From positions 160,001-224,000 of the IMG/VR virus record IMGVR_UViG_3300036987_000310: 64,000 nucleotides of DNA. One strand, written 5' to 3'. Of the stretch, positions 14,116 through 63,598 are shown one piece after another. A program made the translations under genes and the position numbers. Source of the stretch: a virus. Taxonomy: Duplodnaviria > Caudoviricetes. The notes under the pieces were generated by a model. That model made no database searches. It worked only from the letters and a program-made list of their open reading frames with translations, and was not told where the DNA came from. Within the stretch, counting starts at the first letter, position 1. Each line of letters opens with the position of its first letter.

Positions 14116-14520
14116 TCATTCGTCCATGACGTCATACACCAGAAACGCGTTGACAGCGGTTAAAAGATCCTCAGCTGTCAGTTTGTCAACTGGAGGAAGA
14201 TGTACTTCCAAATTTTTCTCGCGAAACCTTTGAATCACGATTGTGGCCCACCGGTTGTCGTTGAAGTCTTCTGAGTTGGAGAACCTAAGCAAGCATTCGC
14301 TGTGACTAACAACCAAGGCGAACCACGCGCGCCATCCGCGCTCTTCGATTGAAAATTTGAATGTGAATCCAGAAACTTCGTCGTTTTGCTTCAGATGATG
14401 GAACGCGTCGTTCACCATCTGTTTCCGAATTCCGTCGTCCCCAATGTCGTCTACGTCGATGAAGATCGACAGCGCCTTGACAACATCTGGGTGCAGATTC
14501 ATAGCGTGATCTTTACCCAA
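14116..14520 (-). CDS. hypothetical protein, C-terminal tag family
   Basis: Ends ...AFLVYDVMDE*. Confidence 0.7.
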   Translation of the reverse strand: MGKDHAMNLHPDVVKALSIFIDVDDIGDDGIRKQMVNDAFHHLKQNDEVSGFTFKFSIEERGWRAWFALVVSHSECLLRFSNSEDFNDNRWATIVIQRFREKNLEVHLPPVDKLTAEDLLTAVNAFLVYDVMDE

Positions 14521-14693
14521 AATGTCCCACGGTTGTTTTCTTCCATGATAAGGTCCACAGAAACCTCATCTTGTTCCATCATGCAAACCGTCGGACGAAT
14601 GCCAATAGGTAGCATCCCGTTTGCGGAAAGATTCATCAGCGCTTGAAGCACGGCCTGCATGATCAACGCTTTGAATTCTGTTTTGTTCATCAT
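14499..14693 (-). CDS. hypothetical protein
   Basis: ATGA-coupled to upstream gene. Confidence 0.55.
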   Translation of the reverse strand: MMNKTEFKALIMQAVLQALMNLSANGMLPIGIRPTVCMMEQDEVSVDLIMEENNRGTFWVKITL

Positions 14694-14986
14694 CTTCCTG
14701 GCGGCTTCAGCGGGCGCGGCATATCTTCGTACGGAAGCCGAATGGAGCTAACCACCGGAACTTTCCCAGAACTGCACAAATTTTGCGACCCTTCCTCCGC
14801 GTCCATCTCAAGCTTTCCCCATGCTTGTTCCATTTTGTCGCGCTGGCGAGTGGTCAGTTTGTAACCGCTGTTTTTTGAAAGATTCTCTCTCATGCTCTCG
14901 AAAGCTTCTGTTTCCCAATCGTCTAAACCCTCGTTATCGAGCAACGCCTCGAGCTTCTTTAAATCTTCCACCTTGCTCATGTCCAC
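14690..14986 (-). CDS. hypothetical protein, RPLKPPGR family
   Basis: Paralogue of the C-terminal half of 40612-41193. Confidence 0.7.
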   Translation of the reverse strand: MDMSKVEDLKKLEALLDNEGLDDWETEAFESMRENLSKNSGYKLTTRQRDKMEQAWGKLEMDAEEGSQNLCSSGKVPVVSSIRLPYEDMPRPLKPPGR

Positions 14987-15070
14987 TCCCTGCTTCTAGC
15001 TTTCCATAATTTCCAACATTTTTCGGAACTTAAAACAGCCCAACAAAAATCTTGTAGTCAGACGTGGAGG

Positions 15071-15373
15071 CTATGCCTCCATGACCTCCATGACTTCATA
15101 ATTCACTTTGGTGAGGTCGGACACCAACACAGAAAATCTTTGAGACGGAAATTGTAGCAGAGACGACCAATGCACAGTCATAACTCGCGGAGAGTCGGAC
15201 GAGTTTTGCTTGATGTTAACACTGAAAGTTGCCACGACAGAGTTTGACTTTAGCTCTTCCATAACCCCATGAGCCATTGAGAACTGTGAGTCTGGCGGAG
15301 CGTCTCCAACATTCTTCATGGAGAGCGCTTTCACGATCTCCATCGATATGGAATGACTTGGCCCTGTCAACAT
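15071..15373 (-). CDS. hypothetical protein, C-terminal tag family
   Basis: Ends ...NYEVMEVMEA*. Confidence 0.65.
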   Translation of the reverse strand: MLTGPSHSISMEIVKALSMKNVGDAPPDSQFSMAHGVMEELKSNSVVATFSVNIKQNSSDSPRVMTVHWSSLLQFPSQRFSVLVSDLTKVNYEVMEVMEA

Positions 15374-15690
15374 GACGACACTGTCGCAATGTCCTTTATC
15401 GAATCAGCGTTTTCTTTCAGAAGAGAATCGAAATCGAAAGAAATCTCTTGGTTTTCATCCCCAGCCGACACGCCAGACCAAGTAAGCAAAACCTTTCCGT
15501 TTTCGATTTTTGCCGTCCAGTCTCGGCCTATGGCCTTCCTGAGCGCCATGACCTTCATCACCATCTCGACCTTCCCAAGAGCACACTGCATGTCGCGGTG
15601 TCGCCCTATGTCGTGGCGGGACAACTCGTAAAGGATGTGCTCGTACGCAAAGTTCTTGTCAATATCGTGCAAATGAGGCAAACCGGTCAT
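15367..15690 (-). CDS. hypothetical protein
   Basis: 107-aa ORF in operon. Confidence 0.6.
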   Translation of the reverse strand: MTGLPHLHDIDKNFAYEHILYELSRHDIGRHRDMQCALGKVEMVMKVMALRKAIGRDWTAKIENGKVLLTWSGVSAGDENQEISFDFDSLLKENADSIKDIATVSSC

Positions 15691-15740
15691 GTTGTTGAAT
15701 TACAACGTTGCATACTACCGCAACGCATCGATTTTCGAGT

Positions 15741-16019
15741 TCAAGACTCGTGGGTCCCACGCAGAAGAGTGTCAGTGCAAGACTCATATGGGTCGTCGCA
15801 CATGTTCGGGTCTTCAAACGAGGAACACGTGACCTTGAGGCTGCACCGCCTGCACTGATAAGAAGCACCCGCAGGAGCATATCCGAGAAACACCCACTCA
15901 TGTTCTTTAGTCGGAGAGACAGACACCTCTCCCACAGGATCGGGGGCTCTCACTTTCCACAGGTCTTCTGGAAGCGGGCCCGGGTCTTCGCCCGAATCGA
16001 AAAATGGATCGTTTCCCAT
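15741..16019 (-). CDS. HxW-CxxC Zn-finger-like protein, tag family
   Basis: HEW...CRRC...SCTDTLLRGTHES*. Confidence 0.65.
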   Translation of the reverse strand: MGNDPFFDSGEDPGPLPEDLWKVRAPDPVGEVSVSPTKEHEWVFLGYAPAGASYQCRRCSLKVTCSSFEDPNMCDDPYESCTDTLLRGTHES

Positions 16020-16027
16020 GGATAACG

Positions 16028-16360
16028 TTACAACTCTTGGATTTTTTCAACGAGAGTTTCGCCACAGTTTCGAATGGGGCCGACTGCCCACCCGAGGCTA
16101 TGTTCTCCAAAAAATACCTTGAAGAATGCTTGTGCACTTGTGTGCGGCACGCGCCATATCATGACATCGCACACGGAGCATTTCATTGTGTTCATTTCAA
16201 TCAGCTCCCAAGAATGGCTCCCGAAGAATTTTCGCACATGCTTTTCCCAAACTTCCCACGTGGCAACCTTTTGCTTTTTTGGCCAACTCTTCCACACATG
16301 AGAAAAGCCGGTCATACGAGACTTTCTCATTGAGGCCGCCGACTTTTTTGGGAAACTCAT
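16028..16360 (-). CDS. HxW-CxxC Zn-finger-like protein, tag family
   Basis: HSW...CSVC...NCGETLVEKIQEL*. Confidence 0.65.
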   Translation of the reverse strand: MSFPKKSAASMRKSRMTGFSHVWKSWPKKQKVATWEVWEKHVRKFFGSHSWELIEMNTMKCSVCDVMIWRVPHTSAQAFFKVFFGEHSLGWAVGPIRNCGETLVEKIQEL

Positions 16361-16599
16361 TCGTCCATGATCTTTTTCACTGAAATTTCGTCAGCTGCAC
16401 ACCTCAACAAGTCTGCCAAACCCTTGGCTTTCTCGACAGGAAGCGGGATGGAAAAACTTCCTGTGGGGGTGTCGGCAAGCATCACGATCATCACTTTGGA
16501 GTCTCTTTGCACAGACATAGGACGCGATATGTCTAAAGAAGCGTCCATGAGCTCCACCCATACGGTCCTACCTGCGTGCTCGACGATTCTTCGGGCCAT
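16357..16599 (-). CDS. hypothetical protein, tag family
   Basis: Start reassigned to TGATG overlap at 16599; ends ISVKKIMDE*. Confidence 0.65.
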   Translation of the reverse strand: MARRIVEHAGRTVWVELMDASLDISRPMSVQRDSKVMIVMLADTPTGSFSIPLPVEKAKGLADLLRCAADEISVKKIMDE

Positions 16600-17906: not shown

Positions 17907-18116
17907 TTACGTTTCCATGATCTCAGCACATATTTCAGCGTGGTATTCCTCGAACTTCTGTTCAAGCTGAGACTTCAAATCAGAAAGTCTGGCATCGCGC
18001 TCTCTACACTCAATGGCCCCCCGGTCAAACATGTGACGGACATCGCATATGTTCAAATAGATGCGATACATTTGTTGCACTAGGTCGGACTGCGCCAAAG
18101 CGTATTTGACCGTCAT
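17907..18116 (-). CDS. hypothetical protein, tag family
   Basis: Ends EICAEIMET*. Confidence 0.6.
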   Translation of the reverse strand: MTVKYALAQSDLVQQMYRIYLNICDVRHMFDRGAIECRERDARLSDLKSQLEQKFEEYHAEICAEIMET

Positions 18117-18121
18117 TGACG

Positions 18122-18400
18122 CTAAGACTCCATGACGTGATTCAAAGCGCTCAAAATCGGACAGTCTTCATGTTTAGAGGGGTCATACCCATGCCAGACC
18201 TTGTTGCACACAGAGCATTTCCACGTTGGAATGTGAACAGCTGTATAAGTCGACAGCGTTTTAAAACCTGGTGTCGAAATATACTGAAGATGCCATTCGT
18301 GGGGAAATTTTGAAAGCATAGGGTATGCTTTCCAATACGCTGGAACTGGAGATAAAGGAGGAGACCATGCCATCGATTCATTATGCGTCGGACTTTCCAT
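18122..18400 (-). CDS. HxW-CxxC Zn-finger-like protein, tag family
   Basis: HEW...CSVC...HEDCPILSALNHVMES*. Confidence 0.7.
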   Translation of the reverse strand: MESPTHNESMAWSPPLSPVPAYWKAYPMLSKFPHEWHLQYISTPGFKTLSTYTAVHIPTWKCSVCNKVWHGYDPSKHEDCPILSALNHVMES

Positions 18401-19661: not shown

Positions 19662-19775
19662 TGGCGCCTCAATTAAGCTAGAAACTGTTTGAGAAACAGC
19701 GGAACCCTAGTGCGTCGTCGTTGAGGCTTCACGTGCGCCATCAGATCCCAATTTTAGGCGGGGCAACCGCCCCTA
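19662..19775. ncRNA. candidate structured intergenic RNA/leader
   Basis: Nested complementary segments TGGCGC/GCGCCA, CTCAA/TTGAG, CTAG/CTAG, CTGTTT/AAACAG, plus GGCGG-GGCAA-CCGCC hairpin. Confidence 0.3.
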
Positions 19776-20126
19776 TGTCAACATTACACGCGACACGCAT
19801 GATTTTTTCAACCCGGTCAAAATGTTTCGGAACCAAGCTTTGATCGACTTTGTGTGGGAAAGATAAAAACGGCGACGAACTCGCTCAGATGCTAGGCCGC
19901 TGTTATCGTACGTTTGGATGAGAACTTCGACTCTCCAGTTCAGTCTACAAAGAGGAACACAGATGCTAGTCCTCACCGTGGCCAGTTTGACTCTTCCCGC
20001 CTGAATTCTGAACACGAAGTAAGACCGTTTAGTGGTTTTGAACCCGGAGTCCCAACTCATTTTCTTCATGGAGCGCGTGAGTTGGGACCTTAGGCGCCTG
20101 AGCTCCTTTATGATGCTGGCGTTCAT
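19773..20126 (-). CDS. hypothetical basic protein, tag family
   Basis: Ends CVSRVMLT*. Confidence 0.6.
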   Translation of the reverse strand: MNASIIKELRRLRSQLTRSMKKMSWDSGFKTTKRSYFVFRIQAGRVKLATVRTSICVPLCRLNWRVEVLIQTYDNSGLASERVRRRFYLSHTKSIKAWFRNILTGLKKSCVSRVMLT

Positions 20127-20188: not shown

Positions 20189-20402
20189 CTATCCGTCCAT
20201 CACCTTCTGCACCGTCCACTCGTTTCTTGCAACTTCTCTGCAGTTAACATACTCAGACGGCGGCTTGTCGTACAATTGCAAATCGTCCGTCCAACAAACC
20301 CCTGGCGCTCCATGCACCATGGCGCCGCATTTTTCACAGCATCTTCGAACGGAGCCATACGGTTGATCTCGCTGAGTCACAAGGTGTAAAATTTCGGTCA
20401 TG
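20189..20402 (-). CDS. Cys-rich protein, tag family
   Basis: CEKC...NCREVARNEWTVQKVMDG*. Confidence 0.65.
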
Positions 20403-20456
20403 AGACAGGTCCCTCGCTGGCCGCCAAACGTGTCAAAACTGGTTCGCAAAAACGGA

Positions 20457-20600
20457 ATGCTCTTAGATTCGAAGAGGAGGCATCTGGCTTACTGCCCGAC
20501 ATGCCTCTTAGACATGCACCCATCATATTTCCCAAAACATTCAGAAAGCGAATGCTTGTCTTTTCAGCTTGAAATCGTTGAAGACGTTCAAGACGACTGA
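20457..20600 (+). CDS. 47-aa CxxC protein, tag family
   Basis: MLLDSKRRHLAYCPTC...SECLSFQLEIVEDVQDD*. Confidence 0.55.
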   Translation: MLLDSKRRHLAYCPTCLLDMHPSYFPKHSESECLSFQLEIVEDVQDD

Positions 20601-21101
20601 TCATGACTCTTGAATTTCTTTGCACTGACCTTCTCGAGAACTGTTGACGAATCCGAAGTAAAACTCCCACAGCTCGATCGCATTGGTGCGAAACCAGTTT
20701 TCATTGTCCACTGATTGAATGGACGGTTCAACGACGTACGTCCAAAAAAGCCGGTGGGCTATGTCTTCTGACGTTTTAGGGTCACACGAGTTGGCGGCTT
20801 TGGCAAGCATTAAGTCTTCTCTTTTCCCGGTGACTCTCATAGAATCCAAGATCGTTTTGGTAGTTATGGGCCCGCTACATTTGACGACCAGACCATGTTT
20901 TGTTTCCACAGGAACTTGTGGATCCGCCCACACTCCGGGCAGGGAGACCAGACCGTATTCTGTTTTTTGAAAAATCATGTCCATGCATATCGCCCAGTAT
21001 TCGCCGACAGTTTCAATCCAAAATTCCAGCACTTTTTTCTCCTCGGACCACTCGACGTCTAGCGGAGAGACTCGCATGGAGAAGATTACTTTTCTGTCCA
21101 T
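20601..21101 (-). CDS. hypothetical protein, tag family
   Basis: Ends QCKEIQES*. Confidence 0.6.
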   Translation of the reverse strand: MDRKVIFSMRVSPLDVEWSEEKKVLEFWIETVGEYWAICMDMIFQKTEYGLVSLPGVWADPQVPVETKHGLVVKCSGPITTKTILDSMRVTGKREDLMLAKAANSCDPKTSEDIAHRLFWTYVVEPSIQSVDNENWFRTNAIELWEFYFGFVNSSREGQCKEIQES

Positions 21102-21559: not shown

Positions 21560-21755
21560 TCACTCGTTCATCACAGCTTGCACAAATCTGCCGTCGCACG
21601 TGGCGGGAATCCCTTGATTCTCAAGATCCAAGATTGCGTCGCGGATTGTCGAGTTCGGGTTGTTTGTGGCCGTTATTTTCAGGCCGCATCGTTTGCAAAC
21701 GAAAAAAGTTTCTGAAGCGCCTGAATTCTTTCACTACTCCCCATGAGTGGTTCAT
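21560..21755 (-). pseudogene. frameshifted HxW-CxxC tag-family gene
   Basis: MNHSWGVVKE continues in +1 frame as SGASETFFVCKRC...TCDGRFVQAVMNE*; span is 196 nt (3n+1). Confidence 0.6.
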
Positions 21756-21976
21756 GATTTCATGACTTCCATTAGATGAATAGTTTCTTCAGGAACTTCT
21801 TCCCAGTCAAAAGTTCTTTCCCTTTGGGACACCGGGTCAATCCAGCATCCGCTCCATACGTTGATCATGTCCATCGCGCAATCATCGCAATATTGAATAA
21901 GCCTTCCGTTCAACATGAACACTCTAGTGGCTTGATTTCCACAACAAGCGCTAAGACTGTGACGAAAACAGTTCAT
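21752..21976 (-). CDS. treble-clef-like Zn-finger protein, tag family
   Basis: CCGNQA...YCDDC...EVPEETIHLMEVMKS*. Confidence 0.7.
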   Translation of the reverse strand: MNCFRHSLSACCGNQATRVFMLNGRLIQYCDDCAMDMINVWSGCWIDPVSQRERTFDWEEVPEETIHLMEVMKS

Positions 21977-23864: not shown

Positions 23865-24191
23865 TCAACTGTTCATCACAGTTCTGGCGCAAACCCAAAG
23901 ACGGAGTTCCACCAAAGCGTCTTCAATCTCAGGACTGGTTGGCGCGTTTCCACCAATCTTGAGAAGCTCCCCGGATTCCAGCATTTTTCCATATTTGTGC
24001 TTGGTTCCGTCGGAGTCCATCGTTGCCAACATAAAGATTCTGTGCGGCCTGCAAAAACTTTGAACAGGCTCATGTGGCTCGAGAACGGCCATGACCAAAA
24101 GAACAACCCCGTCTCCTATGGGACGGGCCCATTCATACTCTTTTTGACGAGACTGCATTGACAACATACTCTGGAACGGTTCCCCGTTCAT
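23865..24191 (-). CDS. hypothetical protein, tag family
   Basis: Ends EDALVELRLWVCARTVMNS*. Confidence 0.65.
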   Translation of the reverse strand: MNGEPFQSMLSMQSRQKEYEWARPIGDGVVLLVMAVLEPHEPVQSFCRPHRIFMLATMDSDGTKHKYGKMLESGELLKIGGNAPTSPEIEDALVELRLWVCARTVMNS

Positions 24192-26838: not shown

Positions 26839-27054
26839 TCATGCGTCATGAATTTCCATGATCAAAAGTTCGTCTCTTGTTTTTTCAACAAATTTCTTTG
26901 ACCAGCGTCCCTCCATCCCAGTCAATAGAAGAAACGTGCGCGCATGCTGGCCGCACCTTGCGTGCAGAACTTCCTGCCTAGGCTCTGACTCCAAGAACCA
27001 TCTGACCGCGACTTTCGAACACTCCGGTATTCCGCATTTTTGCGGAATTTTCAT
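26839..27054 (-). CDS. treble-clef-like Zn-finger protein, tag family
   Basis: CGIPEC..VAVRW...RCGQH...EKTRDELLIMEIHDA*. Confidence 0.7.
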   Translation of the reverse strand: MKIPQKCGIPECSKVAVRWFLESEPRQEVLHARCGQHARTFLLLTGMEGRWSKKFVEKTRDELLIMEIHDA

Positions 27055-27114: not shown

Positions 27115-27606
27115 TTACTCATTGTGTATCTCGAATAACGCCACCTCGTCCTTGTCGAGCGTCATAGCTATGTCAAACCGATTTATTGTTTCGTGTTTCG
27201 CACATCTCGGGTAAACCCTGTCAAATTTTGACACATGCCAAACAACGGCATCGCGTTCACATGTCAAACTATGAGTCGGATTTTCTGCCATGAAATGTCC
27301 ACAACGCTTTTCAAAAACTCTGAAATTGTTCTTTATGGCGTTTGGGGAGCTTCCGTACATCAGCCCAAAGTTCAAATGTTTTTCACTCGACATGACGGAG
27401 TCTATTGTGAAAAATGCTTCGTTAACAGTTTCTGCCATCTTTTCAAAAACAAGTGTGAAAGCCGATGGAGCGCAAAATTTCATTCCAACGTTTTTAACAC
27501 CCGGCATCGGGTTGCAAACGTGCAGTTCCGATTTGCAAGACTCTGCCAAAAGACTCATGAGTCGAATTTCCATTTGAGAATAATTGGAATTTCGCATGTT
27601 CATCAT
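27115..27606 (-). CDS. hypothetical protein with C-terminal Zn finger, tag family
   Basis: CERDAVVW...RCAKH...LDKDEVALFEIHNE*. Confidence 0.65.
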   Translation of the reverse strand: MMNMRNSNYSQMEIRLMSLLAESCKSELHVCNPMPGVKNVGMKFCAPSAFTLVFEKMAETVNEAFFTIDSVMSSEKHLNFGLMYGSSPNAIKNNFRVFEKRCGHFMAENPTHSLTCERDAVVWHVSKFDRVYPRCAKHETINRFDIAMTLDKDEVALFEIHNE

Positions 27607-48890: not shown

Positions 48891-49262
48891 TCATGCGCTC
48901 ATGACTTTTTGAATGGAAAGAGTTTTTCTTGCTTGCTCAATTTGTTCTTTCGTTGCAAATTCTTTGACAGTTTTCATTAAATTGAACTTTTTCGTTCTGA
49001 AAACTGTCAAATCTGCTCCGTATTCTAGGAGCAGTTTGCACACTTCCGTGTGTCTTTCTGACGTAGCACACCGGAGCGCATAATTGTTGTCTGCATGAAC
49101 GTTCGCTCCATTTTCCAAGAGCAATTTGCACACTTCCAAGTGCCCATTCCGTGCAGCATGCTGAAGCGCCCAGTCTTTATTTGCGTGAACGTTTGCCCCG
49201 TTTTCTAGGAGCAATTTGCACACTTCCAAGTGCCTATGTGCTGCAGCTTTGATCAGATCCAT
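48891..49262 (-). CDS. ankyrin-repeat protein (about 3 repeats) with constant tail
   Basis: Same repeat; ends IQKVMSA*. Confidence 0.9.
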   Translation of the reverse strand: MDLIKAAAHRHLEVCKLLLENGANVHANKDWALQHAARNGHLEVCKLLLENGANVHADNNYALRCATSERHTEVCKLLLEYGADLTVFRTKKFNLMKTVKEFATKEQIEQARKTLSIQKVMSA

Positions 49263-50370: not shown

Positions 50371-50754
50371 TTATTCCAACTGAATTTTTCCGACGTATCC
50401 TTCTTTATCGAGAGCCTCCGGAGTTGGTCGGCCGAGTTGTAGGCCGATGATTTCTGTCAGCACCATCGCATCATCGTCGCTTGTCAGGCGCAATTTTTCT
50501 CTGACGTATGAAGGGCTCAGAAATCCGTTTTTCGCGGTGAAAATTGCCGAGCCGCTGAGGACCCCATCGCCCAACAGAGACACCACCCATGAATTTTCTT
50601 GGCACCCAAGAAGTTTGCAAGCGGAGGCGGGGACCCTGGCGAATGACATGACGTACCTCGTTCCATTCCCTGGCTGGTACTCCATTATTTTACAATACGG
50701 AGCCGGATCGTCGACAATCCATTTTATGGCTTCTTGTATTTCTTTGGTTCTCAT
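50371..50754 (-). CDS. hypothetical protein
   Basis: GAGGTGAC RBS; YQPGNGTRY motif. Confidence 0.7.
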   Translation of the reverse strand: MRTKEIQEAIKWIVDDPAPYCKIMEYQPGNGTRYVMSFARVPASACKLLGCQENSWVVSLLGDGVLSGSAIFTAKNGFLSPSYVREKLRLTSDDDAMVLTEIIGLQLGRPTPEALDKEGYVGKIQLE

Positions 50755-50766: not shown

Positions 50767-50997
50767 TTAAAAGTCGTGAATTTCCAAAGCCATCGACTGA
50801 AACGTCAGCCAGGCGTCGCGGTCCACCTCGTGCGGGTGCGGCGCGTTCCAACATTTGTCGCACCACGTCAGCAAGTACAGGGCGCCGGGCTCGATTTCCG
50901 CCGTCCAGTGCGTCGCTTTCCCACGGCAGGTGTCGCACTCGTCCGACCTGATTGCAATCATCGCCTTGACCTCGCCATTGTCAGTTCTGACAATCAT
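50767..50997 (-). CDS. treble-clef-like Zn-finger protein, tag family
   Basis: CDTC..KATHW...WCDKC...EVDRDAWLTFQSMALEIHDF*. Confidence 0.7.
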   Translation of the reverse strand: MIVRTDNGEVKAMIAIRSDECDTCRGKATHWTAEIEPGALYLLTWCDKCWNAPHPHEVDRDAWLTFQSMALEIHDF

Positions 50998-51284
50998 GTT
51001 TCGTGCACTTCTTTGAGCAAGACGTCTGGATGCGCAACTTCAGCCCAATACAATTTCGTGAGCTCGTCGAGATCCTTCCGACACTTGAACTCGCTGCTGT
51101 GAATCAATGAAATTAGCGTCACAATTCCGCCGCGAGTCTGCCCGGCAATTTTGACACAAGCCTCCCTGGTGTGCCAGTATTGATCCCAGCTATGTTTGAC
51201 TAGCCCGGCTTTCAAAATGCAAGCGGCCAGAGCGGGCAAGTTTCTCCGTGCTTCTTCAATCAGGGCATCATCGGCGTCGTTCAT
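50994..51284 (-). CDS. hypothetical protein, tag family
   Basis: Ends HPDVLLKEVHET*. Confidence 0.7.
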   Translation of the reverse strand: MNDADDALIEEARRNLPALAACILKAGLVKHSWDQYWHTREACVKIAGQTRGGIVTLISLIHSSEFKCRKDLDELTKLYWAEVAHPDVLLKEVHET

Positions 51285-51613
51285 TTCTTTCCCTTCTTGG
51301 CCAGTTCTCTCATGTGGGCTCGTGCTGCCTTGACGCAGGCTCCCCACACCTTCAGAGCGTCGTCCTCGTTGTCGGCGTACACGTAGTGTCGGAATTCTTC
51401 CGTGTCCCCGTATCCCGAAAACACTGACTTGTCAGACGGGCAACGCATCGCCATGCCAAACCCGAATTCGACGGCGGAATTCGTATCGTTATCGCCGAAA
51501 GTCGTCATTCCGGCATATCCCGGATGTTGGTCGAGGTATTCCCACTCGTTGCTTCCTAGTTTCTCAACGGCCGCGTCAAGCTTTTTCGAATAGTTGATTT
51601 CGCCCCGTTTCAT
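51281..51613 (-). CDS. hypothetical protein
   Basis: ATGA-coupled at both ends. Confidence 0.65.
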   Translation of the reverse strand: MKRGEINYSKKLDAAVEKLGSNEWEYLDQHPGYAGMTTFGDNDTNSAVEFGFGMAMRCPSDKSVFSGYGDTEEFRHYVYADNEDDALKVWGACVKAARAHMRELAKKGKK

Positions 51614-52038
51614 TTCTCGTGAACTCCTTCCACGATCGACTCGCGGATTAGCTGGAATAGCTGGTTTTTCGTAAGTCCTCTGTCCATTAGGTCCGCGGCA
51701 GCCTTCTTGAAAGCTTCTTCCTTCTTTGTGCGCACTCGGCGCAGCAGCGCGCTCCGGCTTTTCTCGGCGCCGCTTTGAATCCTTTTGACAGCTGCTTCGA
51801 GCTCGCGAAGCTGTTGCGGGTCCTGCCGGGCTTTCTCCGCTGTCGAGAGAATCGTGAGAACGAGCTTATTGCTGTCAACGTGACTGGGCGCTGCGTGCTG
51901 CAGCTTGCCCAAAACATCTTCAGCTTTGTCCTCTGGGTAGAGCAGGAGCTTCACTGTGCATTCAGGTTCCAAAACAATTGTCACGCTCACCCTGCTCGAT
52001 CCATCCAGCCAAAGCTTTCCGCTAATCTTGTGCGACAT
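51610..52038 (-). CDS. hypothetical protein, tag family
   Basis: Ends LIRESIVEGVHEK*. Confidence 0.7.
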   Translation of the reverse strand: MSHKISGKLWLDGSSRVSVTIVLEPECTVKLLLYPEDKAEDVLGKLQHAAPSHVDSNKLVLTILSTAEKARQDPQQLRELEAAVKRIQSGAEKSRSALLRRVRTKKEEAFKKAAADLMDRGLTKNQLFQLIRESIVEGVHEK

Positions 52039-52603: not shown

Positions 52604-52917
52604 GGCCGAAACCACAGTGACGCGACACCCAAATTTTGGGCATTTTCTGACACGAGCAGCGCGTTTCCGAAAGCCACCATGTGCAGCGAGCACTGGGAAC
52701 ATGTGACACGCTTTCCATGGTCCAGCTTCTCGACATTGGCGTTGCACCGGGGACACCGTGCGCCAACTTCTTCCTTGACGATGCAAGACGGGTCGATTCG
52801 GCTTCGAAGCGTGGCGAGCACAACGTATCGATTGCGCGGAAGCCGTTCGACGCAGGAATCGCTGGTCGCAACAAATTTCCCCGGCATGAACGCTGGGGCA
52901 ATTCTGTAATCGTTCAT
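52600..52917 (-). CDS. zinc-ribbon protein
   Basis: CPRC...CSQC. Confidence 0.65.
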   Translation of the reverse strand: MNDYRIAPAFMPGKFVATSDSCVERLPRNRYVVLATLRSRIDPSCIVKEEVGARCPRCNANVEKLDHGKRVTCSQCSLHMVAFGNALLVSENAQNLGVASLWFRP

Positions 52918-53477
52918 GATAGCGTGACCTCCGCGACCTGAATCAGGTCCTCTAGCTCTTGCTCAGTTTCGGGAACTGTTTTGTGAGTCAGGAGTTGGCA
53001 CACGAGGCCGAACTTGGACGTTTTCGGCAGCTTGTTGACCAGTTCTTGCACGGACATCGTGCGAGTTGTTCTCAAGTCTTCTATATAGAAGCCTGCAGCT
53101 TGCACCAGCTCTCTGATGGACAACCGTTTTTCGTTGTCCAAAATCAAGTCCCTTGACCTAGACCGGCAAATGAACTCGTTAACCAGCTCTTTCGGGATCG
53201 GGCGCGTTTTAGCACATTTGCGCTCGTACGACATTGCCAGTTTGGCAAGGCTCTCAGTAACGCGACCTCCAAACTTCGGATTCATGCGCCTTTCAAGATA
53301 GCGGCGCACAGCTTCGGTCGGATCGCATTGGGGGCAGTTTGCGACGTGATTTTTGACAATTGGATACAGAATGATGTTGTCCACCATGAACTGACTTACC
53401 GGGCCAGTCTTGTCTGTTTTGAAGTGTCCGTTCTTGCCATGCCCGTCGCCTTTGACTGTGATGACGCAGTCGAACAT
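52914..53477 (-). CDS. hypothetical protein (variant tail VAEVTLS)
   Basis: GGAGGTGAC RBS; H..NCPQC; ends TEQELEDLIQVAEVTLS*. Confidence 0.75.
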   Translation of the reverse strand: MFDCVITVKGDGHGKNGHFKTDKTGPVSQFMVDNIILYPIVKNHVANCPQCDPTEAVRRYLERRMNPKFGGRVTESLAKLAMSYERKCAKTRPIPKELVNEFICRSRSRDLILDNEKRLSIRELVQAAGFYIEDLRTTRTMSVQELVNKLPKTSKFGLVCQLLTHKTVPETEQELEDLIQVAEVTLS

Positions 53478-53581: not shown

Positions 53582-54109
53582 TCAAGCCTCCTGCACCGAT
53601 TTGATGAGCTTGACCCGGTCACGATATAGCGAATCGTGTTGCAGTTCGTACCGGATGTCGAGGCACTGGGATAGCTTCGCCCAGAATCGAAGCTTCTGCG
53701 CAGTCTTCCCATTCTTGACCACTTTCCATGTGATGGAATCGTAGTCTTTGTCGTCCTTGAGCGCCGATTTGCTGAAAGCCCTGATGTAGACCCGGTCGCA
53801 TTCGAGCACCAGGCCGGCCGGCAGCGAAACTTGAGCTCGTTTGAGGGATCCGCCATAGCGCTGGCCGGGAGGCGGATCCTCGTACACGCTCCACTGCCTC
53901 GACTCCGGGTCGATCAGTCCGAGAGCCTTAGCAAAGTTGAGGTTTCGCCTCTCGAAATAGAGCGTGAATTCCCAAGGCGCGGCAAGCACGAGCCTGTCGC
54001 CACATGCGGGGATGAACAGCCGCTGCTTGTCAGTCAAGTTGTCGAAGGCCACTGTCAACTTGCTCAGATCAACTGTTGCGGACTTTGCTTCCTTCTTTGC
54101 TTTTGCCAT
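53582..54109 (-). CDS. hypothetical phage protein, tag family
   Basis: Ends RVKLIKSVQEA*. Confidence 0.75.
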   Translation of the reverse strand: MAKAKKEAKSATVDLSKLTVAFDNLTDKQRLFIPACGDRLVLAAPWEFTLYFERRNLNFAKALGLIDPESRQWSVYEDPPPGQRYGGSLKRAQVSLPAGLVLECDRVYIRAFSKSALKDDKDYDSITWKVVKNGKTAQKLRFWAKLSQCLDIRYELQHDSLYRDRVKLIKSVQEA

Positions 54110-54490
54110 TCATGCCTCCATCACGTTTTCCATGATCAATTCGTCCAAGGCTGATTGCAAATCGTCCAAATGCGCGTATGGCTTGCCTTCTCCGAAGGCA
54201 CATGACCCGTCCACGACTCGAAGGTTCTGCCCGAGCTCCAACACCCATACGCGCATTCGGGTCCCCACGTCGTCGTCAATATACTGGGCGCTATCCACCC
54301 ATCTGATGGAAAACTGGTTCTCGCCAACGCGCAGCGGGGTGCCGCTTTTGAACTCGAGGGACCTATCTTGGCGCGACCATCGCCTCAACCGGTTCCAAAG
54401 CCGATTCCACCCTTCCACCACTTCAGGACGGACGCACTCTGGAATCGTGGAAGGCGTGTGATACGGCCGGACGCCAGATCTTTTCCTCAT
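54110..54490 (-). CDS. hypothetical protein, tag family
   Basis: Ends LDELIMENVMEA*. Confidence 0.7.
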   Translation of the reverse strand: MRKRSGVRPYHTPSTIPECVRPEVVEGWNRLWNRLRRWSRQDRSLEFKSGTPLRVGENQFSIRWVDSAQYIDDDVGTRMRVWVLELGQNLRVVDGSCAFGEGKPYAHLDDLQSALDELIMENVMEA

Positions 54491-54861
54491 GTTTCATGAA
54501 CCTCTCTCACCGAGTTCAGCTCGTCTGCAATCTTGCAAGCTTCAGAATAGCTGTCGGCCTCGTTGACGACAGCGTCGTCGCATTTGACTGTTGTGGACAG
54601 GGCTCGGTACCAACCCGAGGCGTCTTGCAACACAAGCCAGGGCTTGGACGCACGGCGCGGATCCTCGTGTTTGCCATACTGCTTTTTGGTGATGATCAAG
54701 AGTTTTGCCGACCTCACGATTGCCGTCGGCCCAAAACCGTCAAATTTGACGCGACAAATTAAGGATGTCGTGCCTGTGGTTTTGCCCCATCTGTCTTTTG
54801 AGCAAGTGACTGATGCAGACGGGTCTTCTTTCACCAAAAAGACGTATCTCACTCGCATCAC
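54487..54861 (-). CDS. hypothetical protein, tag family
   Basis: Ends IADELNSVREVHET*; C-terminal half resembles 60593-60775. Confidence 0.7.
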   Translation of the reverse strand: MMRVRYVFLVKEDPSASVTCSKDRWGKTTGTTSLICRVKFDGFGPTAIVRSAKLLIITKKQYGKHEDPRRASKPWLVLQDASGWYRALSTTVKCDDAVVNEADSYSEACKIADELNSVREVHET

Positions 54862-57600: not shown

Positions 57601-57656
57601 AGCGTCATGACCGTCCAGTTCGACACAGAAGCATTGAACTGGACGGTCATGACGCT
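57601..57656. repeat. perfect 21-bp inverted repeat with 14-nt spacer
   Basis: AGCGTCATGACCGTCCAGTTC-N14-GAACTGGACGGTCATGACGCT. Confidence 0.9.
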
Positions 57657-58081
57657 TGCACCTCCTCCACTAACTCTTCCAACACCGCCGTGACGGCCAG
57701 CCCCCTGATTTTGGCCACCACATGCGGCGGAAACAGCTCGACATCCCCGATCCACTCCCACAAAACCCTGTGTTGCATCGCGCCCATCAACGCTCCCTGC
57801 GGGTCGCAGAGGAACGTGGGAACATGGACGTCCAGCCCGGCATCATGCAAGAATGGCTCGAGTTTCATGGTGATGTTGATGAATGTTGAGCTGACTGTCG
57901 GGACGCGGTGTGGGGCGAAGAGTAAATGGTTGTCTGTTTCTTTGACTCGCGAAATTTTGAATTTGGCCCGGCTCCAAGCCGAAGCCAAATGTTGGCTCAA
58001 ATAATCTTTTTGAGCTTGATATAAACTGAGCCGGGCGTTGTCGAATTGGTCCTGGATGACCTGGTATTCACGCTTGGTCAT
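57647..58081 (-). CDS. hypothetical protein, tag family
   Basis: Ends LEELVEEVQAS*. Confidence 0.7.
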   Translation of the reverse strand: MTKREYQVIQDQFDNARLSLYQAQKDYLSQHLASAWSRAKFKISRVKETDNHLLFAPHRVPTVSSTFINITMKLEPFLHDAGLDVHVPTFLCDPQGALMGAMQHRVLWEWIGDVELFPPHVVAKIRGLAVTAVLEELVEEVQAS

Positions 58082-58443
58082 GACGCTTGCACCCCCATCA
58101 CGAGCAAGTCTGGGCGATGCTCTTGGAGCAGCTTCTCAAGAAGCTCTGCTGGGTCTTCGCGCCAGAACGTCAGGTTCAGATACCCTCCGTTGCCTTTGTG
58201 CCAGGTCACCCAGACGTCCCCGCCTCCGGCAGCTTCCCACCCTTGCAGAAAACATCGGTTTGGGTAGCTCATTTCCCAGTTTTCTGTCTTCTTGGACCAG
58301 GAGTTGTTCTGGTTTGCTCCATCAGAAAACAGTGCCGCCTCGCCCACGATGGAGCGAAACTCGCCGATCTTCTTGAGCCCAGTCGTGCAGAAAATTAGCC
58401 AGACGAGGTCCTGCGCCTTCTTGGAAGCATCGTTCACTTTCAT
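58078..58443 (-). CDS. hypothetical protein, tag family
   Basis: Ends PDLLVMGVQAS*. Confidence 0.7.
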   Translation of the reverse strand: MKVNDASKKAQDLVWLIFCTTGLKKIGEFRSIVGEAALFSDGANQNNSWSKKTENWEMSYPNRCFLQGWEAAGGGDVWVTWHKGNGGYLNLTFWREDPAELLEKLLQEHRPDLLVMGVQAS

Positions 58444-58447
58444 GTCA

Positions 58448-58678
58448 TTAGTCCTCCAGCTCGGGGTGGTCTTGCAGAAAGAGAGCACCATCGGCGCCAT
58501 ATCCCTCAGCGGAGGCGACTTCAGCGAGATTTCCCGGGAACCCACCTGGGTCGTTCATGAGGTCAGACGCCGAGTATTTTGTGCCGTTGATTACCCACCC
58601 GTAATCGTCCGGGTCTCCGCCGTTTGACCAGCCCACGACACTCGAAAATTCCAATTGTTCCTTCGTGATCTTCGGCAT
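58448..58678 (-). CDS. hypothetical acidic protein
   Basis: GAGGTGAC RBS. Confidence 0.65.
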   Translation of the reverse strand: MPKITKEQLEFSSVVGWSNGGDPDDYGWVINGTKYSASDLMNDPGGFPGNLAEVASAEGYGADGALFLQDHPELED

Positions 58679-59539: not shown

Positions 59540-60088
59540 TCATGTGCCCATGACTTTTTGAACGGAAAGAATTTTCTTCGCTTGCTCAATCTGCTCTTTC
59601 GTTGCAAATTCCCGAGCTAACCTTTTCAAATTGAAGTTTTCCGTTCTGAGAACCGTTAGGTCTGCCCCGTGTTCTAGGAGCAATTTGCACACTTCAAAAT
59701 TCTCATATTGTGCGGCCCACCGGAGTGAACGATCATTGTGTGCGTGAACGTCTGCCCCATGTTCTAGGAGCAGTTTGCACACTTCCAGGTGCCCATTGTG
59801 CGCAGCACACTCTAACGCATAATCGTCCGCACGAATACCTGCTCCATGTTCTAGGAACAGCTTACATACTTCAAAATGCCCGTTTGATGCAGCAAACTGG
59901 AGCGCCTGATCACCGTCTGCATGAACGTTCGCCCCGTTTTCTAGAAGCAGTTTGCACACTTTAGGGTGTCCGTTTGACGCAGCCCACTGGAGCGCCAAGT
60001 CGTTCTTTGCATGGACGTCCTCCCCGTTCTCTAGAAACAGTTTGCACGCCTCAAAGTCACCAAGTTTTGCGGCTTCGATCAGACCCAT
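59540..60088 (-). CDS. ankyrin-repeat protein (about 5 repeats) with constant tail
   Basis: Start MGLIEAA; ends EQAKKILSVQKVMGT*. Confidence 0.9.
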   Translation of the reverse strand: MGLIEAAKLGDFEACKLFLENGEDVHAKNDLALQWAASNGHPKVCKLLLENGANVHADGDQALQFAASNGHFEVCKLFLEHGAGIRADDYALECAAHNGHLEVCKLLLEHGADVHAHNDRSLRWAAQYENFEVCKLLLEHGADLTVLRTENFNLKRLAREFATKEQIEQAKKILSVQKVMGT

Positions 60089-61145: not shown

Positions 61146-61619
61146 TTATGCGCTCATGACTTTTTGAACGGCAAGTTCACTTTTCGCTTGCTCAATTTGT
61201 TCTTCTGTCGCAAACTCTTTAACGACCTTTTTCAAATTGAACTTTTTTGTTCTCAGAACTGTTAGGTCTGCCCCGTGTTTTAGGAGCAGTTTGCACACTT
61301 CAAAGTGCCCATGTGTTGCAGCATATTGGAGCGTCCAATCGTCTTCTGCATGAACGTTTGCTCCATGTTCCAGGAGCAGTTTGCACACTTCCAGATGCCC
61401 ATAGCATGCAGCCCGCTGGAGCGCCCAGTCGTTTTCTGCATAGACGTTTGCTCCGTGTTCCAAGAGCAGTTTGCAAATTTCCAAGTGCCCACTGTATGCA
61501 GCATTTTGGAGCGCACGATCGTTCTTTGCATGGACATCCGCCCCGTTTTCCAGGAGCAGTTTGCACACTTCCAGGTGCCCATTCTGTGCGGCTTCGATCA
61601 GGTCATTGTCGTTTCCCAT
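61146..61619 (-). CDS. ankyrin-repeat protein (about 4 repeats) with constant tail
   Basis: Ends EQAKSELAVQKVMSA*. Confidence 0.9.
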   Translation of the reverse strand: MGNDNDLIEAAQNGHLEVCKLLLENGADVHAKNDRALQNAAYSGHLEICKLLLEHGANVYAENDWALQRAACYGHLEVCKLLLEHGANVHAEDDWTLQYAATHGHFEVCKLLLKHGADLTVLRTKKFNLKKVVKEFATEEQIEQAKSELAVQKVMSA

Positions 61620-61629: not shown

Positions 61630-62193
61630 CTAAATTTCCTGAACGTGCGCCACGGCTTCTTCAGCCATGACTGTTCGCGCCAATTTGTTCAGCTGTCGGG
61701 GAGTTGCTCCAGAGCGGCGCGCAGACCGCATGGCAGCTAAAGCTCGATTCAAGTCCCCCTGAATTTTTCGAGCTTCGCGCTTTTTCTCGGGCTCTCTGCT
61801 AACTCGCAAAGTCCTGAGCTGGGCGGCCAACTTGTTGAAGCCGCCTCCTCCGCCACGCCTCGTGAGCTCTTCCTTCATCTCTCTTTGTATGTAGTGGCGC
61901 GTGATTGAACGACTGCGCGAGAGCGACCAGTCGCGCCATTCGGGGCGCAGGCCGAACTTCTTGAAGAGGGACCAGATCAGTTGCGAGTCTGCGTCAAACT
62001 GGTCCAAATCTGGGATTCGCGCGGCAACTTTCACGGTCTTCTTGTCAAATCGCAAGCCGACGTGCACGATCGTGAAAGACTTGTTGTAGGACGGCTTGAT
62101 CAGCTTGGCGTTGGCGAGGAATGCCACGATGAGAGACGCCTTGGCGTCGTTCTCGTCGCAGAATTCTTTCGTCGTTTTCCCGAATTCGTCCAT
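61630..62193 (-). CDS. hypothetical protein, tag family
   Basis: Ends MAEEAVAHVQEI*. Confidence 0.75.
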   Translation of the reverse strand: MDEFGKTTKEFCDENDAKASLIVAFLANAKLIKPSYNKSFTIVHVGLRFDKKTVKVAARIPDLDQFDADSQLIWSLFKKFGLRPEWRDWSLSRSRSITRHYIQREMKEELTRRGGGGGFNKLAAQLRTLRVSREPEKKREARKIQGDLNRALAAMRSARRSGATPRQLNKLARTVMAEEAVAHVQEI

Positions 62194-62241: not shown

Positions 62242-62514
62242 TTACCCTGACTGGACTTTTTTCACTCGGCGAAGATTGATCGCGTCTTGGGCTTCTTGAA
62301 CAGTCATTTTGTGTACAGCTGTTTTGTAGCGACGCACGAACTTCAGCATCATGTCGTACGACACAGGGTTGTGCAAAATGTCTTTCATCAAGGCGAGCAA
62401 GACTTCTGGGTTTTTGTCCAAAATCTCCCCATAGTCGCAAAAACCAGTGTCCGCGAACCAGTCAGCGAGCACCGCCGAAAACTCTTCTTTCACGCCTTGT
62501 TTGGAAACTTTCAT
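62242..62514 (-). CDS. hypothetical protein, tag family
   Basis: Ends TVQEAQDAINLRRVKKVQSG*. Confidence 0.7.
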   Translation of the reverse strand: MKVSKQGVKEEFSAVLADWFADTGFCDYGEILDKNPEVLLALMKDILHNPVSYDMMLKFVRRYKTAVHKMTVQEAQDAINLRRVKKVQSG

Positions 62515-62540
62515 GACTCACGACTCCCGAGTTTCTGGCT

Positions 62541-62966
62541 TCATTTGCTCATCACCGACATCAGGCGAAACTCGTCCCATGCCATTTTGAAGACTTCGGG
62601 CCAGTGGTCTGCCAAAGCGGCATTTTTCTGAGTGCACATGACTCGCAAGAAATTTCTCTTGGCATCGTTCATGTGCAGCTGCAGTTTTTCGTCTTCCACG
62701 CTAGACCCGTTGTCGGGCTCCACGCTGGAGACGTCTCCCCTGCGGCGAAGCACGAGCTTTCCGCCCCACCGGGTGCCGTCGTACCCGTACCCGCTTGGAG
62801 TGTGCTTGTCTCGAGCACACTCCTCGCAAAACCCCATCACGTCTTCGTACACTCCGTTGTCGCGCCACAAGTGGGAGTACTTCACCCGGAAAAAGATCTT
62901 GGCTTGACGCCCACAGTTCTTGGTTCTGTCCTTGTTGGGAATTTTTTTCATGCCGTTGCATCGCAT
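62541..62966 (-). CDS. hypothetical protein, tag family
   Basis: GAGGTGAC RBS; ends DEFRLMSVMSK*. Confidence 0.7.
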   Translation of the reverse strand: MRCNGMKKIPNKDRTKNCGRQAKIFFRVKYSHLWRDNGVYEDVMGFCEECARDKHTPSGYGYDGTRWGGKLVLRRRGDVSSVEPDNGSSVEDEKLQLHMNDAKRNFLRVMCTQKNAALADHWPEVFKMAWDEFRLMSVMSK

Positions 62967-62969
62967 TGC

Positions 62970-62996
62970 GTCACCTCTCGCGTCCGATACCGCGCT
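62970..62996 (-). promoter_or_regulatory. GTA-core promoter-like motif + RBS
   Basis: CGCGGTATCGGACGCGAGAGGTGAC. Confidence 0.65.
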
Positions 62997-63068
62997 GCGA
63001 GTCGCGGCTCCGCCATTTTTTAGAAGTTTGTGCCTAAACAACTGAGGGGGTGGAGGTCGCGATCCGAT

Positions 63069-63092
63069 CAGCGTACCGGACAGCGGAGGTGT
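63069..63092 (+). promoter_or_regulatory. GTA-core promoter-like motif + RBS (plus strand, divergent)
   Basis: CAGCGTACCGGACAGCGGAGGTGT. Confidence 0.65.
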
Positions 63093-63095
63093 CGC

Positions 63096-63413
63096 ATGGC
63101 GCGAAAGAACGACAAGACAGACGTTTTGGACATGATCGAAGTGATGGAAGTGGAGGGTAGGCCCCTGGCCCACATGCGCATTTGCATCACTGGCCACCTG
63201 GCCAAATCTCGGGACGAAATTGTGAAGCTCATCAAGCAAGGCGGAGGAGAGTTTCACTCCTCGATGAAGTACCACACGACCCATCTGCTCACCAACGCGG
63301 ACTGGACAAAGAACTCTGTCGACGGAACGTCTTCCAAGTTCAAGAAGGCAAAGGAATATGGGGTCAAGGTCATCAACGAAGAGCAGTTTCTGGCCCTGCT
63401 GACCGGTCCATGA
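63096..63413 (+). CDS. stand-alone BRCT-domain protein (NAD-ligase/RFC-type BRCT)
   Basis: ICITGHL...RDEIVKLIKQGGG...TTHLL...SSKFKKAKEYGVKVINEEQF. Confidence 0.88.
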   Translation: MARKNDKTDVLDMIEVMEVEGRPLAHMRICITGHLAKSRDEIVKLIKQGGGEFHSSMKYHTTHLLTNADWTKNSVDGTSSKFKKAKEYGVKVINEEQFLALLTGP

Positions 63414-63598
63414 AGTGCGAAAGCTTCGATTGCGTCGGCTCTTTTGACGAGCACGAATGCGAAGAAGAAGCTGTCTACTTTTTCGCATGGGGTGATGACG
63501 CGATCGCCGTTTGCGATCGCCATTCCCACATTTATCTCGGAGACAGCACCGAGATGTCTGAAACAGAATTCCTGATCGCCAGAATCCATCAACAGTGA
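63410..63598 (+). CDS. treble-clef-like Zn-finger protein, tag family
   Basis: CESFDC...ECEEEAVYF...VCDRH...EMSETEFLIARIHQQ*. Confidence 0.7.
   Translation: MKCESFDCVGSFDEHECEEEAVYFFAWGDDAIAVCDRHSHIYLGDSTEMSETEFLIARIHQQ

Follow-up and report, generated by a model that had tools for sequence, protein, structure and literature searches.

Hundreds of unrelated proteins carry the E-block of the Legionella Dot/Icm system, a loose acidic C-terminal signal with hydrophobic residues near -3/-4, and C-terminal degrons, such as those of ssrA and MuA, are short, loosely conserved signals found on many substrates. The internal proteins of phage T4 are hypervariable and have only a short terminal targeting peptide in common (T4 head reviews PMC9026906, PMC7697877). 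Peptides are also bound via an acidic ligand by metal ion-dependent adhesion sites (MIDAS) (PMC7159879, PMC13036017): CbbQ-CbbO requires its MIDAS site together with a C-terminal motif of the Rubisco large subunit (PMC5437159), and NorD docks on the NorQ ring with its two C-terminal residues, whose deletion abolishes the docking (PMC13036017). Small variable FxSxx-COOH proteins and a zincin accompany vWA-MoxR systems (Kaur et al. 2020, PMC7159879), and a MoxR/metallopeptidase-vWA pair has been described in jumbo phages without mention of a tag (Iyer et al. 2021, PMC7824862). Here, we analyzed a stretch of 64,000 nucleotides (hereafter the window) of the IMG/VR virus record IMGVR_UViG_3300036987_000310, in which many accessory proteins end in the same C-terminal tag of about 12 residues, and compared this tag and its candidate reader, a phage-encoded MoxR/zincin-VWA pair, with the systems above.

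No published description of the tag was found in the literature searched, and a 2026 jumbo-phage review makes no mention of C-terminal, targeting, import or sorting signals, degrons or MoxR. The window comprises bases 160001-224000 of a complete record of 376,674 bp with direct terminal repeats and 51% GC, this phage's whole genome being referred to as G000; G001-G006, G012 and L184/L186 denote IMG/VR relatives or their fragments. Comparison of the window genes with cultured phages by megablast and tblastn revealed no close relative, and the records nearest by portal protein were the uncultured phage LR745208 (46% identity), Tunturiibacter phage Tunturi_5 (36%) and Bacillus phage G (28.5%). 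The portals of the IMG/VR clade of relatives are 67-84% identical, and complete genomes of 362-436 kb are found among them. Genes were called with our own hexamer log-odds model, trained iteratively on long open reading frames (ORFs) and followed by non-overlap selection, which gave 570 genes in G000 (93% of the genome covered), 115 of them at window positions 14116-63598. Relatives and the two outgroups, Tunturi_5 and LR745208, were taken as whole records through the same pipeline. Since the C-terminus of an ORF is independent of its start codon, the choice of start codons leaves the tag counts unaffected.

A C-terminal tag in fixed register

It had originally been predicted from the window alone that unrelated accessory proteins encoded at positions 14116-63598 share a C-terminal [VI][MHQ]-x-x tag at the end of a helix, with about one chance match expected per 115 ORFs. 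In our gene calls, 41 of the 115 genes in this interval end in the strict motif ([VI] at -4 and [MHQ] at -3, position -1 being the last residue), where ~1.1 are expected from the internal frequency of the [VI][MHQ] dipeptide (0.97%; binomial P 4e-52), so that both the tag and the estimate of chance hold. The motif is equally conspicuous at the scale of the genome, ending 114 of the 570 genes against 5.5 expected (binomial P 1e-109). As predicted, its register to the stop is fixed: the dipeptide lies at offset 4 in 114 genes and at other offsets in 1-7 genes each, except for 24 genes at offset 7, which arise because V/I recurs at -7 as part of a helical repeat. The lock at offset 4 is repeated in every tag-positive genome tabulated (G001-G005), and uncalled ORFs carry the motif at background rate only (35/2950).

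Outside the two selected positions, information is found at -7 (V/I/L, 1.6 bits), -2 (E/D/N, 0.9), -10 (E, 0.8) and -1 (S/A/E, 0.7), as well as at -11 (D/E) and -5 (E/K), with Cys enriched at -12, and it disappears beyond about -13. The spacing of the hydrophobic positions -3, -4, -7 and -8 is that of a helix. The tag is therefore an amphipathic helix of ~12 residues with the consensus [DE]-E-x-x-[VIL]-x-[EK]-[VI]-[MHQ]-[EDN]-[SAE]-COOH, and the helix that had been predicted ahead of the motif is indeed part of it. In an AlphaFold2 model of a tagged 213-aa ankyrin protein (predicted local distance difference test, pLDDT, 84), three helices follow the repeats, and the tag lies in the last of them (residues 195-212), which is modelled at lower confidence than the repeats. 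A position-specific scoring matrix (PSSM) of 12 positions with a cut-off of 6 bits recovers 115 C-termini in G000 and only 0.065% of internal windows, and none in either outgroup. Some of the endings first listed fall away by these measures: THES (15741-16019) reaches only 4.0 bits, LMQE does not score, and the ORF at 34544 (VHES) is not called as a gene, while IHDF (50767) satisfies the strict motif and stays below 6 bits.

Selection on the tag acts on the peptide rather than on the DNA, as had been proposed. In a DNA logo around the stop codon, codon positions 1 and 2 reach 1-2 bits while wobble positions stay at 0.1-0.5 bits, and no conservation is seen over the 30 bases that follow the stop. 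Different codons serve the same position (GTG/GTC/GTT/ATC/ATT/ATA at -4; ATG/CAC/CAA/CAT/CAG at -3).

Carriers of the tag and its dialects

When the last 14 residues were removed from the 114 carriers and the remainders compared all-against-all by BLAST, 105 clusters were obtained, 98 of them singletons, and a round of phmmer/hmmbuild/hmmsearch over six genomes, again with tails removed, returned the same number of clusters. By sequence, the carriers are thus as unrelated as originally described, and this two-step profile search together with BLAST argues against hidden paralogy among them. They are 32-308 aa long (median 112), Cys-rich (3.3% vs 2.1%) and often have Cys at -12.

The largest carrier family consists of five ankyrin-repeat paralogues. 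The diverse binding domains that the original prediction attached to the tag are borne out for these five only, since none of the 37 other (non-ankyrin) carriers in the window has a significant Pfam match and just one of the 37 matches a PHROG; likewise, the ten largest carriers genome-wide have no Pfam or PHROG assignment, apart from the ankyrin protein. The proposed analogy to F-box/PRANC proteins, viral ankyrin-repeat proteins that also end in a common C-terminal docking module, is a functional one. PRANC is a folded domain of ~40-60 residues, whereas the tag here measures 12 residues and sits mostly on non-ankyrin ORFans, and no PRANC or F-box domain was detected on the 213-aa ankyrin protein, where only ankyrin families were significant. 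These ORFans, which make up 20% of the genes across a clade of uncultured jumbo phages, are not annotatable by homology. The tag groups them into one functional class and implies common handling, whether by a hub, a protease or a machine for loading or remodelling.

Small genes running in the same direction form long arrays at 100-280 kb and 360-376 kb, well beyond the interval first considered, and a third to half of the genes there are carriers. Structural (0-80 kb, 306-357 kb) and replication blocks are almost tag-free, and the predicted absence from enzymes agrees with our calls, in which IMPDH, DNA ligase, the DFP/CoaB-like protein and the collagen-like/S74 fibre genes of the window have no tag. 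No part of the genome turns over faster than the tagged genes: reciprocal best hits of the 114 number 6 in G001, 7 in G002 and 28 in G003, compared with 166-226 of 456 untagged genes in the same three genomes. Of 71 orthologue pairs with a tag on both sides, 72% are identical at -4 and 65% at -3, compared with 32% identity in the body, the two former values being inflated because carrying the motif was a condition for both proteins of a pair. In 17 of 1854 orthologue pairs, only one partner is clearly tagged. For instance, the conserved core protein G001_345 ends in DTVKEVMES and its orthologues in four genomes are untagged, and a DHH phosphoesterase is tagged in G005 only. Such one-sided tags on conserved orthologues mean that the tag is gained and lost as a module; it is portable.

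The tag is real, highly significant and clade-wide, and it acts at the protein level. Strict-motif endings were found in 145 of 666 genes of G001, 101 of 569 of G002 and 84 of 494 of G003 (all complete genomes), and in 42 of 403 and 21 of 354 genes of the partial genomes G004 (72% complete) and G005 (64%). Outgroups Tunturi_5 and LR745208 have 3 of 380 and 1 of 699, respectively, and no PSSM match, so that the enrichment proposed for checking across the genome and its relatives is present in the clade and missing from the outgroups and the uncalled ORFs.

Six relatives are tag-bearing, each with its own dialect. That of G001 reads V-x-E-V-M-E-S (M 88% at -3, S 81% at -1) and that of G005 V-D-x-V-H-D-L (H 90% at -3, L 57% at -1); G000 and G003 have a mixture of M/H/Q at -3, G004 has H in 60% at -3, and the contigs L184 and L186 use T-x-x-V-[VIL]-[ED]-S. 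A shift in wording within one genome affects all its carriers together. Concerted change across many unrelated carriers is what a single co-evolving reader predicts and supports the docking interpretation, and we consider it very probable that the tail is a portable C-terminal docking signal for one common reader. The portable peptide signal of the original prediction is therefore upheld; its recognition through the terminal carboxylate and a role of the carriers as binding-domain adaptors are hypothetical.

The most distant relative, G012, is a 131-kb fragment with a GC content of 28% and a portal (26-28% identical) more distant than that of either tag-free outgroup. In this fragment, 50 of 227 genes end in ...T-C-D-E-W-I-I-x-x-I-I-[E/N/D] (0.06 expected), which is, judged from its residues, the same helix including the C-D-E lead-in, one residue shorter. 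Most of its carriers belong to a small number of tandem paralogue families (clusters of 22, 9 and 4). Tandem arrays of 15-20 genes (L176-L182), e.g., at 17111-21951 and 113006-114574, encode paralogues of ~70-110 aa that end in ...TCDEWIIKNIIE or ...DEEWIIFQIIN and may show what a young tagged array looks like. Across the clade (G000-G005, G012), GC spans 28-66% while portals are still 67-84% identical (26-28% for G012), which suggests a wide host range for one phage lineage.

The MoxR/zincin-VWA pair as candidate reader

Two genes just beyond the window encode a MoxR-type AAA+ ATPase of 368 aa (G000 234511-235617; L009:10511-11617, minus strand) and a HExxH-zincin/Zn-ribbon/VWA-MIDAS protein of 511 aa (G000 229187-230722; L009:5187-6722, minus strand). 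The ATPase matches Pfam AAA_5 at 23.0 bits (cut-off 22) and PHROG 1297 at 3e-48, and is 58-82% identical in relatives. The larger protein, a member of PHROG 1314, has a DUF2201_N metallopeptidase domain joined by a Cys-rich linker to a DUF2201 VWA domain (2.6e-10), and a tblastn search with it ties the two PHROG families to N4-like phages (N4 gp24/gp25), where they occur in the same gene order. Members of the VWA-zincin/MoxR family are often labelled 'HNH endonuclease' in public records. HExxH-x4-H and the MIDAS signature D-x-S-x-S...T...D (D383, S385, S387, T443 and D468) show no variation among 8 sequences with identities as low as 33%, and Foldseek with an AlphaFold2 model of the VWA-zincin (pLDDT 69) retrieves VWA/MIDAS structures, including the MIDAS of Rea1/Mdn1.

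In G000-G004, the two genes are on the same strand and 1.7-4.6 kb apart, and variable tagged genes both separate and surround them; the intervening stretch of G000 holds nine small genes, of which seven are tagged, and in G012 the two adjoin one another with a tagged gene alongside. A phyletic profile (present in G001-G003, no match in either outgroup) fits 79 genes of G000, of which the pair is the best conserved inside accessory arrays. Sixteen G000 proteins have a match in G012, and only the pair is found in all complete tagged genomes and in neither outgroup, its absence from both outgroups being confirmed by a six-frame profile search. Homologues of the VWA-zincin are present on ~280 contigs; when viral contigs were scanned twice for remote homologues of it, only clade members and G012 emerged. 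The pair is thus conserved, with intact catalytic and MIDAS motifs, inside tagged arrays and in phyletic agreement with the tag.

Both genes are preceded by (T/G)CGGAAG - ~13 bases - GCG(C/A)GTATC, with a variant copy before the VWA-zincin gene, and the same motif is found upstream of operons holding tagged genes. This promoter-like motif ((T/G)CGGAAG, ~13 bases, GCGCGTATCGG) occurs 20-60 bases upstream of start codons, with 13 intergenic copies between 212 and 254 kb; sites include window positions 52065, 57497 and 60559 (minus strand) and G000 231562, 235658 and 244545-254309. It may mark a regulon of the phage's own sigma factor. A loose promoter pattern resembling that of extracytoplasmic function sigma factors was no commoner than in shuffled sequence.

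We regard the MoxR/zincin-VWA pair of the N4 gp24/gp25 type as the leading candidate for the reader, with a likelihood somewhat short of even, and its binding to the tag is what we infer from the observations above. In such a scheme, a common tag on the rapidly evolving accessory proteins of the phage would allow a single reader, co-evolving with it, to deal with all of them as one class. The helix would dock via the stripe of hydrophobic residues at -3, -4, -7 and -8, with a constant spacing to the chain end, after which an acidic residue or the terminal carboxylate would complete the MIDAS metal site, or the chain end would dock on the AAA+ ring. The ATPase would then remodel the client and the zincin domain trim or destroy it, leading to the timed removal or activation of host-takeover proteins. 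More speculatively still, the tag could be the client code of a MoxR/zincin-VWA machine by which more than 100 effectors per genome are processed, activated or destroyed on schedule while reader and tag co-evolve, an extension that we hold to be possible and rather doubtful. The fate of the clients, whether trimming, destruction, activation, loading or folding, is a matter of pure inference.

Similarities to described modules make such a reader plausible in outline. CbbQ-CbbO and NorQ-NorD also combine a MoxR ATPase with a VWA-MIDAS partner, but each acts on a single client and has a VWA partner devoid of peptidase, whereas here the HExxH zincin is intact and there are more than 100 unrelated putative clients. 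N4 gp24/gp25 represent the same two families, but no client tag has been described for that module. The FxSxx-COOH systems share fast-diverging small proteins, a C-terminal motif in fixed register with two free last residues, and a zincin next to vWA-MoxR; they differ in the motif itself, in being bacterial, in having one or few precursors per locus and often a radical-SAM partner. If the pair is the reader, this would be the first function and client rule for a module of N4-like and many large phages, and if the client code holds as well, a phage's host-takeover arsenal would become recognizable from sequence alone.

Several observations weigh against the pair as reader. Phage N4, with its homologous gp24/gp25 pair, shows no common C-terminal tail, so the pair does not imply the tag, and a general rule to that effect is ruled out. 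The tag-positive fragments G005 and G006 (64% and 56% complete) have no pair in their available sequence; both are tag-poor, so the tag-rich region may be what these fragments are missing. The crude phyletic pattern fits 79 genes, of which the pair is but two, and G012 is known only to 31% of its genome. For such pairs in jumbo phages, Iyer et al. proposed a role in virion assembly (PMC7824862). Further, V/I/L replaces M/H/Q at -3 in some genomes, which disfavours metal ligation by the -3 side chain and weakens M/H/Q as a metal ligand. A complex prediction with the VWA-zincin, a MoxR monomer and a 30-residue tagged tail scored 0.00 and counts neither for nor against. As for other readers within the phage, the classical kinds (Clp- and PDZ-type) were rejected together with S41, as the complete genome encodes no S41 tail-specific protease, ClpP, ClpS or PDZ domain, and Ubl/E1/JAB genes near 116-122 kb were rejected because they are not conserved in all tagged genomes.

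The lack of such proteins in the phage would be expected if a host protein, i.e., an AAA+ protease or its adaptor, a chaperone or a hub, reads the tag as a degron or recruitment motif, with dialects tracking the hosts. C-terminal degrons are the classical signals anchored at the chain end, and the relatives, at 28-66% GC, probably have different hosts and do differ in dialect. We nevertheless judge a host reader improbable. The last two residues are mainly E/D/N followed by S/A/E, so that polar or acidic endings (E/D-S) contrast with the non-polar extreme C-termini of the ssrA (LAA), Tsp or LpxC type, and neither the last residue (S/E/A/T) nor the genome, which has no PDZ domain, resembles a PDZ-ligand system. 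The same basic helix is kept across very different GC and would need a conserved host pocket, yet the dialects of close relatives differ. The outgroups Tunturi_5 and LR745208 show nothing comparable. Dot/Icm signals and degrons serve bacterial secretion or host proteases, machinery not found in the phage, and the tag here is far sharper than either, and helical.

Another phage protein could read the tag, e.g., so that the carriers are loaded into the capsid and co-injected, or directed to some other structure built by the phage. The internal proteins of T4 set a precedent in that a short terminal peptide is the sole element shared by hypervariable phage accessory proteins with one handling step; 77 further clade-specific genes fit the crude phyletic pattern, and conserved uncharacterized genes lie inside the arrays, e.g., at window 47617-48423. 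The virion-assembly role already proposed for MoxR-VWA pairs (PMC7824862) means that capsid loading and the pair as reader could merge. Set against this, the tagged arrays are apart from the structural blocks, and a cargo of more than 100 different proteins would be unprecedented. The T4 peptide is N-terminal, restricted to a handful of proteins and cleaved by the prohead protease in loading the capsid, whereas the tag is C-terminal, in fixed register, on ~100 proteins per genome and away from head genes. No T4-type cleaved N-terminal peptide is indicated: per 1000 aa, the putative prohead-protease motif [RK][VTIL]A[ASG] occurs only 0.42 times in tagged proteins, compared with 1.08 times in the structural blocks. 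We therefore also give this alternative a low probability.

Lower still is our estimate for common descent, in which the tag is not portable at all and the carriers form one ancient, hyper-diverged paralogous family that keeps its C-terminal helix for structure or self-association. The few tandem families that hold the 50 tagged genes of G012, the small size, Cys content and frequent Cys at -12 of the G000 carriers, and the clear expansion of arrays by duplication (e.g., the ankyrin set) are all in its favour. However, tags also occur on ankyrin-repeat proteins, on a DHH phosphoesterase and on a core protein tagged in one genome only, the carriers range from 32 to 308 aa with almost none connected by profile searches, and an internal structural role would not shift the same positions in all carriers of a genome.

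An artefact of annotation or DNA, i.e., miscalled ORFs or a ribosome-binding site, promoter or recombination site overlapping gene ends, might be suspected from the tight packing (median gap of 11 bp upstream of tagged genes) and is ruled out for practical purposes by uncalled ORFs at background, two outgroup genomes left tag-free by the same caller, a near-uninformative wobble position, the interchange of M with H and Q (ATG vs CAN) and the absence of conservation after the stop.

With the docking signal and its MoxR/zincin-VWA candidate, the system is unusually testable, having a sharp motif, natural negative controls and dialects that amount to built-in specificity swaps.

Tagged genes of the window and neighbouring genes

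Table 1. Tagged and possibly tagged genes of the window (window positions; PSSM scores in bits, to be read against the 6-bit cut-off)
Positions	Strand	Length (aa)	C-terminal end	Feature	Basis
14116..14520	-	134	VMDE	tagged gene	PSSM 15.6
15071..15343	-	90	VMEA	tagged gene	PSSM 14.8
15741..16019	-		THES	possible variant	PSSM 4.0, below cut-off; other ten positions 7.4
16028..16315	-	95	IQEL	tagged gene, Cys at -12	PSSM 15.4
16357..16599	-	80	IMDE	tagged gene	PSSM 15.9
17907..18116	-	69	IMET	tagged gene	PSSM 14.5
18122..18400	-	92	VMES	tagged gene	PSSM 10.4
19773..20126	-	117	VMLT	tagged gene	PSSM 9.3
20189..20401	-	70	VMDG	tagged gene	PSSM 18.6
20400..20600	+	66	VQDD	tagged gene	PSSM 12.8
20601..21101	-	166	IQES	tagged gene	PSSM 14.9
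21752..21922	-	56	VMKS	tagged gene	PSSM 13.3
23865..24158	-	97	VMNS	tagged gene	PSSM 11.0
26839..27054	-	71	IHDA	tagged gene	PSSM 17.6
27115..27606	-	163	IHNE	tagged gene	PSSM 11.7
32023..32670	+	215	VMIR	tagged gene (weak)	PSSM 6.5; no Pfam/PHROG match
32679..33179	-	166	VQLS	tagged gene	PSSM 12.0
33751..34122	-	123	VMES	tagged gene	PSSM 15.1
34317..34547	+	76	VMDS	tagged gene, Cys at -12	PSSM 21.5
36579..36809	-	76	VQLP	tagged gene	PSSM 8.5
38219..38419	-	66	VMED	tagged gene, Cys-rich	PSSM 20.4
39065..39505	-	146	IMRE	tagged gene	PSSM 9.2
43667..43882	-	71	VHES	tagged gene	PSSM 13.6
46121..46390	-	89	VHES	tagged gene	PSSM 15.0
48420..48881	-		VMSA	tagged ankyrin-repeat paralogue	PSSM 14.5; aligned with paralogues
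48891..49262	-		VMSA	tagged ankyrin-repeat paralogue	PSSM 11.8; aligned with paralogues
49272..49913	-	213	VMNT	tagged ankyrin-repeat protein	Pfam Ank 8e-41
50371..50754	-		IQLE	strict motif only	[VI][MHQ] present; PSSM <6
50767..50997	-		IHDF	strict motif only	[VI][MHQ] present; PSSM <6
50994..51284	-	96	VHET	tagged gene	PSSM 10.5
51610..52038	-	142	VHEK	tagged gene	PSSM 15.1
52914..53477	-	187	VTLS	variant tag	PSSM 9.4; orthologue ends VMDC, VQLC, VQIS
53582..54109	-	175	VQEA	tagged gene	PSSM 11.7; 50-61% identity matches in G001-G003
54110..54490	-	126	VMEA	tagged gene	PSSM 17.0
54487..54858	-	123	VHET	tagged gene	PSSM 18.1
57647..58081	-	144	VQAS	tagged gene	PSSM 14.0
58078..58491	-	137	VQAS	tagged gene	PSSM 10.9
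59540..60088	-		VMGT	tagged ankyrin-repeat paralogue	PSSM 10.8; aligned with paralogues
61146..61619	-		VMSA	tagged ankyrin-repeat paralogue	PSSM 14.6; aligned with paralogues
61630..62193	-	187	VQEI	tagged gene	PSSM 12.0
62242..62514	-	90	VQSG	tagged gene	PSSM 9.7
62541..63041	-	166	VMSK	tagged gene	PSSM 11.8
63410..63598	+	62	IHQQ	tagged gene	PSSM 10.5
63608..64000	+	247	VMGV	tagged gene, continues beyond the window to 64351	PSSM 6.6

Adjoining the tagged ankyrin array, an untagged 268-aa gene with a very high coding score (window 47617-48423, minus strand) is conserved in G001-G004 (40-74% identity) and has no Pfam, PHROG or Atlas lead. Tail-fibre-like genes at window 6001-12536 (minus strand) encode proteins of 512 and 572 aa with collagen triple-helix repeats, and one of 821 aa that bears an S74 intramolecular chaperone domain at its C-terminus.

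Outside the window, a 772-aa protein (L014:7379-9697, plus strand; G000 331379-333697) matches PHROG 2426 (E 3e-183) and is ~36% identical to a VWFA-annotated Ackermannviridae protein, the matches in this family coming from Serratia, Klebsiella and Salmonella phages. It was rejected as a capsid protein, being VWA-like and shared with Ackermannviridae; its gene is missing from G002 and is directly followed by a tagged gene. The large terminase (L013:10081-13404, plus strand; 1107 aa) has its PHROG matches split between an N-terminal and a C-terminal stretch, suggestive of an insert, e.g., an intein, and in the relative G014 the portal match comes in three pieces within one open frame of 1507 aa. 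Finally, a 414-aa protein at G000 267441-268685 (L011) has the C-terminus EVRDGKWG.

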